Positions 6,106 through 19,027 of a stretch of DNA of 64,000 nucleotides are shown here, piece after piece; position 1 is the stretch's first letter, and the number at the start of each line of letters is the position of its first letter. Both the position numbers and the translations under genes were made by a program. The stretch comes from Limnothrix sp. BL-A-16. Its GTDB lineage: Bacteria > Cyanobacteriota > Cyanobacteriia > CACIAM-69d. Where the stretch lies: NCBI GenBank assembly GCA_041937175.2, contig CP166615.1:4192001-4256000 (forward strand). Direction: 5' to 3'. Below the pieces are notes generated by a model. It was not told the DNA's origin, ran no database searches, and was given only the letters and a program-made list of their open reading frames with translations.

Positions 6106-6887
6106 CGGTTAACTCCAGAGTCACTATTGCATTGATCCATCCCCGCTTTCCTCCCAGCACGCGGCCTCGCGATCGAGGCCTGCTTCATTCTTCAACTCCT
6201 TGAAATTGCTTGAACTCCTTTGCAAGTTTGCTGGGTCATTGACCCAGGTGGTGTTGCCATCAACAACAATTTATACTTCCGATCCTTGTTATTTTTCTGA
6301 CCTCTTAGTTTTTCCGTTCCCTGCGTTTAAGGCGTGTTACTGATGGTGGCTTGCTCTAGGGGATAGAGTTGTCTTGAGATAAATGTCCACAGCCTGATTT
6401 CAGGGTTTTTACGGACAAGATGCACTGATTTGGGTAATGGATAAAACTGTGAATCAACCATCGCCAAACGGTTCTGAGCTGGTGGTTGATGGAAGAGGAT
6501 CAAGCAGGGGCTAAGTTCTAAAATTCCCAAAAATTGCCCAAAATAAGCTCAAAATCCTGAAAAATTTGATTTTTCTCGACAATGATCGCCAAGAATTTTC
6601 TGAACGACGGTTTTCTAAATTTCAGAACAATCAATGCGACTCAGAACCTAGGAACCCAAACGAACGCAAATCAATCATGGTCGGTCTTTGGGCGTAATTT
6701 TGCCAGGATCGTTGATCTGTAATTGATGGTGAGTTGAGTCATGGGCGAGGGCTGCTGAATTGGGATGCAGCTTTACCCGTGACGGGTCATGCCCCCTGAA
6801 GGATCGTGGGACATTTTGGAGAAGCAATGATTGCAAGACAATCGGAAGGATCTATTTTGAAGGATCTATAGGGTATGACAATAGGGT

Positions 6888-7838
6888 ATGGCGATCGATT
6901 GGCAATTTCGGCTCGGTTGTGCTGTGTGGTCTTATCCCGGTTGGGTGGGTTCCGTCTATCCTGCGGGAACTTCGGGGCAAAAAGCCCTGCGTTGTTATGG
7001 CGAGCGGTTTTGGGCCGTTGAGGGCAACACGACGTTTTATGGTGTGCCAACGGCAGCCACGGTGCAGCGCTGGGGATCGTTGGTTCCCGATGGATTTCGC
7101 TTTTGCCTGAAGTTGCCTCGGGATGTGACCCATCTGGGGCCCTTGCTCGATCGCGGGCCGGCGGCGTTGGCCTTTGCGGAGCGGGCGGCGGCCTTGGGCG
7201 ATCGGTGCGGGCCCTTGTTTGCCCAGCTTCCTCCTAGCTACGGCCCCAGCCAGAGTGCAGATTTGCGACAGTTTTTGAGTCAATGGCGACAGTCAACCGA
7301 TGTCCCTTTGGCGTTGGAGGTGCGTCACCGGGATTGGTTTTTGCCCCATTGGCGCGATCGCCTCAACGGTTGGTTACGAGAGCTGGGAATGGGGCGGGTG
7401 GTGTTGGACACGCGGCCCATTTATCGGGGTTTGGATTTGGCCCGGGAAGATCCCCAACGGCAATCCCAACGGCGCAAACCGGATTTGCCGTTGCAGGCCT
7501 GTGTAACGGCGGAGTTCGCGATCGTCCGGTTCATTTCCCACCCGGAAGCCTGGCGCAATGAGGCTTATTTGTTGGAATGGCGCGATCGGGTGTTGCGCTG
7601 GCTGGAGCGAGGGGTGCAACTGTATTTTTTTGTCCATTGCCCGATCGAGGATCATTCGCCCCACACGGCCCGCCAGTTTCAGGCTCTGCTAGAGGCGGCG
7701 ACGGTTCCGGCCGTGGCCGCGATCGCCCCTTTGCCTTGGAATCAGTTATCAGTCACCGAAGGCGCGGCCGCAATGGCCAGGGATCGGACTGGGGGCGATC
7801 GCTCCGGATCCCAAAACGATCAGCTTTCCCTGTTTTAG
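6888..7838 (+). CDS. DUF72 domain protein
   Basis: LGCAVWSYPGW, VEGNTTFY, FCLKLPRDVTH, QLPPS, ALEVRH. Confidence 0.92.
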   Translation: MAIDWQFRLGCAVWSYPGWVGSVYPAGTSGQKALRCYGERFWAVEGNTTFYGVPTAATVQRWGSLVPDGFRFCLKLPRDVTHLGPLLDRGPAALAFAERAAALGDRCGPLFAQLPPSYGPSQSADLRQFLSQWRQSTDVPLALEVRHRDWFLPHWRDRLNGWLRELGMGRVVLDTRPIYRGLDLAREDPQRQSQRRKPDLPLQACVTAEFAIVRFISHPEAWRNEAYLLEWRDRVLRWLERGVQLYFFVHCPIEDHSPHTARQFQALLEAATVPAVAAIAPLPWNQLSVTEGAAAMARDRTGGDRSGSQNDQLSLF

Positions 7839-12833: not shown

Positions 12834-15800
12834 CTAGTCTTCCTCATCGAAATCTTCACCGCCGTCGGTGTAGCTCTCTTCCTCTTCCTCATCGCCGCTG
12901 CTGGTGTAGCGGCTGCCGTAGCTGCCACCAATGTCCTCATCATCAATGATCGCCGGGTTGCGACTCAGACCATAGGCCGCCTCAGCTCCCAGGTCGATCG
13001 TCCCTTCCAGCTCATAGGCCCGCGCCGTGCGATCGTCCAGCACCACATCGGCCAGTTCCCCATCGTCGCCGTAGAGCGGATCGGTCAGGGTATAGCCCGT
13101 GGTTTCGTAGGGGCTAATTTCATCCACCAGGCCTTCTTCGTAGGCATTGAAGCCCGTACCCGCCGGAATCAGACGACCGATGATCACGTTTTCCTTCAGG
13201 CCACGCAGCCAATCGGATTTGCCCTCGATCGCCGCCTCCGTCAGCACCCGCGTGGTTTCTTGGAAACTGGCCGCCGAAATGAAGCTGTCCGTGTTCAGCG
13301 AAGCCTTGGTGATCCCCAACAGCACGGGCGTGTAAAGGGCCGGAGCCGCGCCGGTAATTGACATGGCTTCATTCACCCGCTCCACCTGTTGCAGTTCCAC
13401 CAACTCACCCGGCAGCATCGTCGTATCGCCACCGTCATCGATCCGCACCTTGGAGGTCATCTGCCGCACAATCACTTCAATGTGCTTGTCGGAGATTTCA
13501 ATTCCCTGGGATTGGTACACGGACTGTACTTCATCCACCAGGAACTTCTGCACCCGCTGCAAGCTGTCGAGGGCCGCTTCGTAGGGCGACATCAACTCCG
13601 CGTAGTAGTTGTAGAAGATTTCCAGGGTTTCGTGGGGGTTGGCCGGGCCGTCGGTCAGCGGTTCCGCCACGTTCGCCGCTTGACCATCGACCACCTGCAC
13701 GTTTTGGCCGGCTCGAATCGGGTATTCCGCCAAGGTGCCATCGTTCTCGATGATCTTGACTTCCACCGTGTCATCTTCCCCATAGACCACTTGGGCCGTA
13801 CCGGGACGACGGGCCAACACGCAGGCTTCCTTGGGCTTCCGGGCTTCCAGCAGTTCCTCAATCCGGGGCAGACCCTGGATGATGTCTCCGGTTTTGGTGC
13901 GCTCAAACACCAGCAGCACGAGGTTGTCACCCCGCTGCACCAGGTCGCCATCATCAATGTGCAACACGGCTTGGGAGGACACGCGGTAGGGGCGTGCCAC
14001 CCGCAACACCACGTGATCTTCCCCGATCGACAGCACTTGGCCCGATTCGGTGCTGACCTGACCGGGGGCAATTTCGCTCTTGCCCGCCACCACCAGGTCA
14101 TCCACCTTCACGGTCGGGGCTTCTTGGGTTGCCACCGTCAACTGATCGGTGGGGCGCATGATCAACAACCGTCGCAGGCTTTCACCATCGCCGCGAATAC
14201 CGCGCACTTCCCCGCCGTCTTTGGCTTGGATTTCGGTGCGGGCCACCACGGCTCCCGGATCCACCCGATCGCCGTCCTTCACCAGCAGCCGCGTGTGGGT
14301 GCTGCCCTGGGTCGGATCCGCCGACACGTCCCGCCGCACCACCAGGGATTCCAAAATCACCAGTTGCAGGCGCTTGATCTCTTCGTCCGTGGGATCATCC
14401 ACCAGTTCAATATCGGCGGCCAACTGCGGCGTACCCTTATCCATTTCCAGGATCAGTTGGGTGCGCAGCAGGTCAATCCCTTCCACGGACTTAACCCGCT
14501 CACCGTCCTTGAACGGAATCCGCTGAACGGCCCGCAGTTTGATCGATCGCCCGGCTTCTTCGGCGGAATCTTGGCTCGGCACGGCCGGCTCATCGGGCAC
14601 GGTGAACTCAATCACCGGCCGCAGCAACAGCCCGGACCCTTCCGGCGTTTCCACATATTCCACACAAACCAGCTCTTCGGCCGGCAAGCCCGGAATGATG
14701 TCTTGGCCGGGGGTGATGATTTGCCCATCGACGGTGGCCACCAAGTCCGGATCATCGACCATCCGCAGATCACCGGGCTTGATCGAAATTTCCCGCAGAA
14801 TGTCGTTCTTTTGGATCACTTCCACGATCCCGGCGCTCTGGCAGAAGATGTCTTTGACGATCTCCGTGCCCGCTTCCACATATTGACCGTCTTCCACCAT
14901 CAACAGGGAGATGTCCTTGTTGATTTCGTGGGTTTCTTCGGGAATCCAAAGCAGCGTGCCCCCTTGGAGCACCTCATAGCCCTGTTTGCCCTTGGCTTTT
15001 TTGGCCACTTCCACGCCGGAGTAGCGCAGAATCCCGCCGGTGCTGGTGCGGTAGTGATCGTCAATCAGCTCGGCCACCACTTGGTTGTGTAACACCTTGG
15101 TGCCGGGGGTGGCAATCAGGGAGAACAGTTGTCCCCGATCGGTCTCAATCAGGTAGTGATCACGACCTTGGGCGCTTTCGGTGCGGATCCGAGCTTCGTT
15201 CAGCAACACCGAGGCAGTGATGATTTCAATTTCCCGGCTGCCGGCCTTGCCGTCGGCCTCGGCCACCTCGATCGGGAGGCGCACCACCCCGCCATGTTCC
15301 GTCACTAGGCGAGTTTCCGCCAAAATGCTGTTGGCTTCTACCACGCTGCCATTTTTGACCGTGGGTTCAGCTCCCGGCGGCAGGTTGTAGACTTCCCCGG
15401 ACAGCACCCAAATCAGCCCACTCCGTTGAGCAATCCGGGTGGTGTTGCCCTGGCGGTCTTTTTTCTCTTCGGGATAGACTCCATCGAACAGCACCTCACC
15501 GGCCATGTCCGAAGGCACGTCTTTGGTGGCTTTTTCCGTGGATTTCCGGGTGGTGCGCCCTTGGGCTTGCACCTCCACCAGCATTTGGCCCAGCTTCACT
15601 TCCTCGCCGCTGCGGGCAATCAGGATCGAACCTTGGCTGGCTTCAAAGGTTTCCTTTTTGCCGCTGGCTTCCACGGTGAGTTTGGTAGGCGCTTCCAGCA
15701 ACAGGGCATCTTCCCCGTGGCGGGTACGGAAGGAGCGGGCCCGTAGATTTTTGGGATATTTGACCACCCCATCAAAGGGCGCACGAATTTGACCGGCCAC

Positions 15801-16948: not shown

Positions 16949-19027
16949 TTAGCCGATGCTGAGGACAGCCTGTTGAATCGTTTGGTTCAGCAAAATGCGA
17001 CCCGGTGTGGTGCGGATATATTGGGTCAGCAGTTCACCATCGCACTCGCGCCGGAGGCTGAGGGGGCGGCGGGTCTTTTTGCCCAGGGTGATGGTGGTGG
17101 CGGTGCTGCCTGCGGGAATCGTCACGGACTCGGCCGGCTGGGCCACCCGAATCGTCACCTGCTCCGGCGTAATCCGAATCACTTGACCCGTGGCCGGCGC
17201 GCTCACGCCGGCCGCCAAGGCCGTGCCTTCGACCACCACATGGCCGTTGTTAATGACGGGGGTTTCACCATTCAGGGACACATCGATGGTGTCTTCGCCC
17301 ACCATCACCCACTGCTCCCCAACTCCCTCGTCATGCTCCACGGGGCCGTTGTATTGCACCCAAACATAGGTATGAAGACCCACCTTGCCCCGATCGTAGG
17401 CGATCGTCGCATCATCCAAGCTGGCAAAGTAGCGCAGCACATCGGCCTTCTGGTTCGGATTTTCGGCCGTCAGGTAGTAACAGCCCAACACCATGTCTTG
17501 GCTAGGGGTGATAATCGGGCGACCCGTAGCCGGTGACAGCACATTGTTAGAAGCCAACATCAACAAGCGCGCTTCCGCTTGAGCTTCCAAAGATAGGGGC
17601 ACGTGTACCGCCATTTGGTCGCCGTCAAAGTCCGCGTTAAAGGCCGGACAGACCAGCGGGTGCAACTGAATAGCGCGCCCATCCACCAGAATCGGTTCAA
17701 AGGCCTGAATCCCCAACCGGTGCAGGGTCGGAGCGCGGTTCAGCATCACCGGGTGGCCATCAATCACCTCTTCCAGCACATCCCAAACAGCGGGATCGTT
17801 GCGCTGGATCATCTTCTTGGCGGCCTTGATGTTGTTGACCAGACCTTGCTTAATCAGCCGGTGAATCACGAAGGGCTGGAACAGCTCGATCGCCATTTCC
17901 CGAGGCAGACCGCATTGGTGAATCTTCAGATTCGGCCCCACCACGATTACGGAACGGCCGGAGTAGTCCACCCGTTTACCCAGCAGGTTTTGGCGGAACC
18001 GACCCTGTTTCCCTTCAATGATGTCCGACAGGGACTTCAGGGGGCGGTTGTTGGCTCCCACCACTGTTCGACCCCGCCGACCGTTATCGATCAGCGCATC
18101 CACGGCTTCCTGCAACATCCGCTTTTCGTTACGGACGATGATTTCCGGAGCCAGGATCTCTTGCAAACGAGCCAACCGGTTGTTGCGGTTAATCACCCGA
18201 CGATAGAGATCGTTCAAATCCGAGGTGGCAAACCGGCCCCCATCCAACTGCACCATCGGCCGCAGGTCGGGCGGAATCACCGGAATCACATCCAGCACCA
18301 TCCACTCGGCCTTCGCCCCGGTAGCCACAAAGTTGTCAATCACCCGCAGGCGCTTGATCAACTTGGCCCGCTTTTGCCCCTTGGCCGTGGCGATTTCTTC
18401 CCGCAGGCGCTCGGCTTCCTGCTCCAGGGGAATATCCTGCAACAGGCGCTGAATCGCTTCGGCCCCGATGCCCACTTCCACGCCTTCGAGATCCGAATCA
18501 TCGGCGTAGAGCCGATCTTCGATTTCAATCCACTGTTCTTCGCTCAGCAGTTGCTTGTAGCTCAAATCCGCCGCGTTGCCCGGATCAAGCACCACGTAGG
18601 AGTTGAAATACACCACCTGCTCCACATCGCGCAGGGGCATATCCAACAGGATTGCCATGTAACTGGGGATCCCCTTCAGGTACCACACGTGGGTCACCGG
18701 GGCCGCCAGTTTGATGAAGCCCATCCGGTGACGACGCACCCGCGATTCGGTCACTTCCACGCCGCAACGTTCGCAGACAATACCGCGGTGGCGCACCCGC
18801 TTGTATTTGCCACAGTGGCATTCCCAATCCTTGGCGGGGCCAAAAATCCGCTCGCAGAATAGCCCGTCCATTTCGGGCTTCAGGGTGCGGTAGTTGATCG
18901 TTTCGGGCTTGGTCACTTCACCGACGATTTGACCATTGGGCAAGGTACGCTCGCCCCATTGGCGAATCCGCTCGGGCGAGGCGATGCCGATCTTTACGTA
19001 GTCAAAGCGCTGCTTGAGTTTCGACAT
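16949..19027 (-). CDS. rpoC1: RNA polymerase gamma subunit (692 aa, with C-terminal insertion)
   Basis: NADFDGD catalytic motif, zinc finger, [13 protein letters not shown] at 19027. Confidence 0.99.

Follow-up and report, generated by a model that had tools for sequence, protein, structure and literature searches.

A copy of the RpoC2 module SBHM-8 within the blade sheet of RpoC1, with a patchy distribution among cyanobacteria

Introduction

Where the beta' subunit of RNA polymerase has lineage-specific insertions, these are usually SBHM/HABAS domains. Among the closest known systems to the insert described here is SBHM-8, a module of the Si3 fin that occupies residues 895-947 in T. elongatus (8EMB); in RpoC2 it has a trigger-loop setting, is driven by trigger-loop folding and has SBHM-2 as its fin partner, whereas the RpoC1 copy is located in the blade sheet and is without these. 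The same domain family and the same habit of insertion into surface loops are represented by the beta' HABAS/SBHM insertions covered in excerpts of Alvarez-Carreno et al. 2024 (PMC11515920), as well as by the Thermus beta' insert (2AUJ). In those excerpts, the middle of beta'-bD4, i.e., the host domain in the present case, is among seven insertion sites, while the extra-insertion variants listed all belong to the Firmicutes or to Deinococcus-Thermus-Synergistes-Thermotogae, in contrast to the cyanobacterial RpoC1 insert. According to the same excerpts, the cyanobacterial type possesses an N-terminal chain without an insert, whereas RpoC1 has one here, and insertion types track the tree of life, whereas the RpoC1 insert has an identifiable donor in its own operon and is patchy within one class.

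In plastids, the blade sheet, described in PMC11561172 and bioRxiv 2024.10.25.620210, is a protein-docking surface for PAP8 and PAP5. PAP8 is a separate, nuclear-encoded protein with another fold, whereas the RpoC1 insert is a predicted in-chain barrel. The plastid beta'-SI1 (spinach residues 545-581) does not form a barrel domain either, but a disordered loop that precedes the blade. No earlier description of the RpoC1 insert was found in the literature searched, and it is apparently undescribed: a known domain family is encountered here at a new site, its donor can be traced, and its spread is patchy. The route by which SBHM/HABAS insertions reach new polymerase positions is called unclear in the excerpts of PMC11515920. 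In the present case it is possible to name the donor, the acceptor site and the carriers, and the 'domain shifts between locations' route can thereby be traced.

Results and Discussion

An SBHM/HABAS-type insert in the RpoC1 blade

The window, i.e., the entire 64,000-nucleotide stretch of Limnothrix sp. BL-A-16 DNA that was analyzed, carries rpoB, rpoC1 and rpoC2 on its minus strand (Table 1). As had been proposed in the original prediction, its RpoC1 is longer than usual, the three solved cyanobacterial gamma subunits comprising 624-626 aa, and the alignment of these three to the window's RpoC1 breaks between query residues ~571 and 650. The insert, 59 codons in frame, lies within the C-terminal blade sheet, in its first hairpin, and 3 kb upstream of the donor module in the same operon; its GC content (0.64; GC3 0.78) is close to that of the remainder of rpoC1 (0.58; GC3 0.73). 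The two peptides on which the prediction was based are exact translations of the minus strand at the positions assigned to them, and their likeness, put at about 19/57 identities, amounts to 19 in 58 columns of a gapped global alignment and to 17/57 if left ungapped, while the module was found to begin two residues earlier than had been assumed.

Table 1. Features of the rpoC1-rpoC2 region, in window coordinates
Feature	Position	Strand	Remarks
rpoC1 (RNA polymerase gamma / beta'1)	16949..19027	(-)	692 aa; ATG at 19027; single copy in genome
Inserted SBHM/HABAS module (predicted) in RpoC1, W573-P631, copy of RpoC2 SBHM-8	17135..17311	(-)	alignments, profile match, models, superposition
GD-box-like motif of RpoC1 module, residues 591-605	17213..17257	(-)	glycine (G88 of the tail) invariant in 18/18 aligned carrier sequences
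Acidic loop directly before module, residues 561-571	17315..17347	(-)	closer to other-family carriers than to module-free kin
Second indel, 7 residues, G-x-K-S/T-x-x-P, next blade hairpin	17063..17083	(-)	in all carriers examined
RpoC1 'blade' (beta'-bD4), the C-terminal beta-sheet that hosts the module	16997..17347	(-)	model superposition
rpoC2 (beta'2), 1339 aa	12834..16853	(-)	ordinary-length Si3; intact RTRHG rim-binding loop
Donor module SBHM-8 of Si3 fin, RpoC2 L897-P955, intact	13989..14165	(-)	sequence and superposition

A sandwich-barrel hybrid fold, on which the original prediction had been made to depend, is indeed predicted for the insert, the model of which superposes on a solved Si3 module; the RpoC1 blade model superposes on residues 522-624 of the S. 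elongatus gamma subunit and on residues 578-673 of plastid beta'. A profile of the insert matched four cyanobacterial RpoC2 chains with E-values from 2e-17 to 5e-5, while a Pfam scan of the single insert returned no match. A loosened form of the published GD-box motif, as defined in the excerpted PMC11515920, is present in 13/15 inserts; at the corresponding site of the window's insert, GH replaces GD. Predicted fold, GD-box-like motif and sequence homology thus concur in assigning the modelled insert to the SBHM/HABAS domains. Two related structures were considered and rejected as identities for it, i.e., the Si3 insertion proper, since the insert lies in the RpoC1 blade and not in the beta' trigger loop, with the genome's own Si3 being separate and of normal length, and plastid beta'-SI1, since the insert sits within the blade itself and an ordered structure is predicted for it, as opposed to a disordered loop upstream of the blade.

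The insert profile also matches long unnamed proteins of 570-2179 aa (P0018, P0019, P0021, P0022, P0027, P0035 and P0039); in several of these the matches fall in 5-15 short stretches, which are perhaps repeated GD-box-like motifs.

SBHM-8 as the donor

The local score of the insert against the whole of RpoC2 was 66, a value reached by 0/1000 shuffles (best shuffle 54), and pairwise BLASTP of the insert peptide against the RpoC2 peptide gave an E-value of 3e-5. Among the Si3 modules, SBHM-8 is the best match, ahead of all others, and these protein alignments point to this one identifiable module of the Si3 fin as the donor. At the DNA level no likeness between insert and donor is left (blastn, word size 7), and inserts from different families are 17-47% identical; the duplication is therefore considered old, in support of the earlier proposal that a single SI3 motif had long ago been duplicated into the gamma subunit. 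It is considered, with very high confidence, that the RpoC1 blade hairpin contains an in-frame copy of SBHM-8 with a parent-like predicted fold, that this copy is under purifying selection and that the parent module has been retained.

Si3 itself is longer than the usual ~650 residues at three loci, with 690 residues in L211 (G055), 675 in L219 (G225) and 671 in L099 (G073).

Authenticity and maintenance of the insert

In six genome pairs, dN/dS of the insert was 0 (0 versus 9 changes), 0.36, 0.09, 0.32, 0.11 and 0.12. In those four of the more distant pairs for which RpoC2 was compared as well, dN of the insert was 0.26, 0.29, 0.13 and 0.22, resembling that of the donor module in the same pairs (0.24, 0.24, 0.15 and 0.12), and SBHM-8 (13989-14165 and its orthologues) evolves in these four pairs at 3 to 5 times the Si3 mean. 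Furthermore, in 3/4 RNA-library runs, from three studies, the insert is spanned by single contigs, possibly including DNA, with no gap and no joint.

An artefact or removable element, i.e., a misassembly, intron or intein, has nothing more than the unusual length of the protein in its favor and is regarded as extremely improbable: the module occurs in 18 genomes and in independent proteins, purifying selection acts on it at the codon level, and it is homologous to an RNA polymerase domain. An intein or intron was rejected on account of the gapless contigs, with the above reservation as to DNA, and of the lack of any intein family in a Pfam scan. The insert is real, old and conserved.

Distribution among cyanobacteria

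The 18 carrier genomes belong to five families. In the window's family the module is present in 8/8 genomes, and these eight together with G044 are the carriers in a set where 9/61 genomes possess it. Elsewhere it was detected in 3/57 genomes of family f17 (by means of an insert-only profile), 1/90 of f15, 1/2 of f12 and 4/71 of f5, a family that we would guess to be Pseudanabaenaceae-like from its tree position. It was absent from the sampled genomes of f18 (0/4), f9 (0/151), f19 (0/48) and one large order (0/291), the samples of which held no known carrier. Across the class sample 12/400 genomes carry the module, and a phylum sample rich in other classes yielded 1/401, the one being a member of the window's family; these samples overlap, and the search threshold misses broken or absent genes. 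A profile of the tail recovered five carriers outside its building set, with E-values from 1e-67 to 2e-48. The segment is consequently rare and not, as the original prediction had named among its possible refutations, common in cyanobacterial RpoC1. The proposed lineage specificity needs refinement, as the module is not confined to one lineage: five families, at six places of the tree, have it at an identical site.

Among named records, 77 tails were read and 10/80 loci contain the module, their labels being Limnothrix, Oscillatoriales, Crinalium, Oculatellaceae, Leptolyngbyaceae or none. The closest tail, with 99% identity, is from a record titled Limnothrix redekei; cultured carriers thus exist, which makes structural and deletion work feasible.

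Metagenomic RpoC1 fragments P0046, P0015 and P0023 represent further insert variants assigned to none of the searched genomes, and more carrier lineages probably exist. In an additional f5 genome (L218; G465:C313, about 6520-7100), rpoC1 shows a frame change inside the module, while its rpoB and rpoC2 frames are also short, probably reflecting an assembly error. In G014 (L020 / L076), a frame change near the 3' end of rpoC1 results in an unrelated tail of 70 residues; rpoB and rpoC2 frames are broken there too, and a sequencing error is the probable cause.

A companion indel and mosaic-looking flanks

In all carriers examined the site of the module is identical; an acidic E-x-D-E-P-like loop precedes the module, and the 7-residue indel is located two strands after it. 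This indel also occurs without the module, namely in 8/80 tree genomes and in Planktothrix and Floridanema records; on its own, it may represent either a precursor or a scar. Motif-only loci are L071, L072, L073, L074, L075, L076, L216 and L219 and, among named records, L118, L129, L133, L136, L144 and L176.

Judged by their sequences, the flanks look mosaic, with segment limits that were set after viewing the alignment. The nine residues before the module are nearer to other-family carriers than to module-free kin in 8/9 carriers, the 50 residues further upstream follow their own family in 9/9, and the hairpin after the module is like that of other carriers in four f5 genomes and like that of their own family in the other five (f17, f15 and f12). 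A loop signature common to 9/9 module-free, motif-free f5 genomes is absent from the f5 carriers. The likeness of the loop could be a structural constraint set by the module.

History of the insert

On a species tree of 80 genomes (concatenated RpoB, RpoC1 core and RpoC2; FastTree), the deep nodes of which are weak, 17 carriers fall into six separate clades. The preferred history, to which we assign about an even chance, is a single origin and subsequent spread by short-cassette recombination, with some losses. SBHM-8 would have been copied into rpoC1 in one ancient event, and a cassette of about 100 codons, composed of the acidic loop, the module and the 7-residue hairpin indel, would then have passed from one cyanobacterial lineage to other, distant ones through homologous recombination in the conserved flanks, with some lineages possibly losing it later. 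Such spread sits less well with the carriers of f17, f15 and f12: in all five that were compared, the post-module hairpin resembles that of their own family. Recent transfer is not visible, as no pair of distant lineages has a highly similar insert. rpoC1 is a common marker gene, and if the cassette moved laterally, its 3' end would be mosaic in carrier lineages.

The insert tree was built from 15 inserts and 51 donor modules over 60 columns (G002, G007 and G465 omitted, donors thinned), an alignment length that gives such trees little power. In the free tree, a single clade (94/91) unites 13 inserts, and those from f15 and from one f5 clade are nested, on long branches, among the inserts of the window's family; a tree constrained to join all 15 inserts was 8.35 log units better than the free one. 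AU tests reject neither this nesting nor the vertical groupings (p 0.46, 0.32, 0.37, 0.086 and 0.20), those of the f1 inserts alone giving p 0.46 and 0.37 and those of the f5 inserts together p 0.32 and 0.086. Pairing of inserts with their own RpoC2 modules is likewise not rejected (p 0.27 and 0.20). The unrejected vertical groupings and own-donor pairing both weigh against cassette spread.

The vertical groupings would suit presence in an ancestor after the deepest branches, followed by many losses, with the lone 7-residue indel as a stage after loss of the module. This reading is possible, though on the unlikely side. Insert likeness falls with species distance (Spearman -0.72, for pairs that are not independent) and, pair by pair, is mostly below the likeness of the donor modules, and motif-only genomes often neighbor carriers, for example G018 and G030 beside G044. 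On the 80-genome tree, however, strict vertical descent would require the module to have been lost 23 times and the indel 19 times, with a nearly constant tail of 114-124 residues restored each time. Two further findings argue against it: the f5 non-carriers have their loop signature in common although they occupy several branches surrounding two nested clades of carriers, and no carrier occurs among the 291 genomes of one large order.

Repeated copying from each genome's own rpoC2 into the same permissive site, or refreshing by gene conversion, is quite unlikely. It would be consistent with the unrejected own-genome pairing, with the two f5 inserts that lie outside the main insert clade of the free tree, and with the f17 inserts, which are 45-47% identical to their own SBHM-8 versus a mean of 36-37% to all, the corresponding values for the G438 insert being 38% versus 34%. 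However, in no case does the module of the same genome clearly stand out as the best match, own-pairing trees are ~15 log units worse, and the same start point and companion indel would have had to arise in six places.

Position on the enzyme and possible role

By analogy with the plastid enzyme, the module would sit at the surface to which an accessory protein is docked in the polymerases of plant chloroplasts, a position drawn from papers on the plastid polymerase and not from coordinates. A specific docking site, be it for a lineage-restricted factor or for Si3 through an SBHM-SBHM contact like that of the parent in the fin, would be in line with the docking of PAP8 and PAP5 on the plastid sheet and with the contacts of Si3 SBHM modules to sigma and the rim helices (PMC10120043). 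Such a role is nevertheless judged unlikely: near-invariant positions of the insert are fold residues only, while surface residues vary between carrier lineages, the insert matches the fastest Si3 module in its rate of evolution, and no covarying sites were found in other subunits.

The same conservation pattern and lack of covariation would be expected of a near-neutral passenger, i.e., a self-folding module in a tolerant surface loop, with no role in transcription, that persists as only its precise deletion is harmless; this is a real, if tentative, possibility. Most cyanobacteria are without the module (0/291, 0/151 and 0/48 in the samples above), close kin differ in f12 and f17, and deletion of the whole Si3 left catalysis unchanged in vitro, according to the accessible part of PMC10895346. 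Purifying selection is not diagnostic of function, as it is expected for any insert that must fold within an essential protein. Against a passenger stand the retention of the module in every genome of the window's family and in lineages with inserts 17-47% alike, its constant coupling to the same second indel and loop, and the consideration that spread by recombination is easier to explain with a benefit. By the same plastid analogy, the insert would mark the blade as a site of cyanobacterial mass addition, where plastids later docked PAP8.

As a separate observation, family f21 (L091 of G027 and L235 of G050) has its own extension of ~20 residues in both blade hairpins, giving tails of 137-138 aa. 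These extensions coincide in position with the module and with the 7-residue indel, and are possibly a relic or an independent change.
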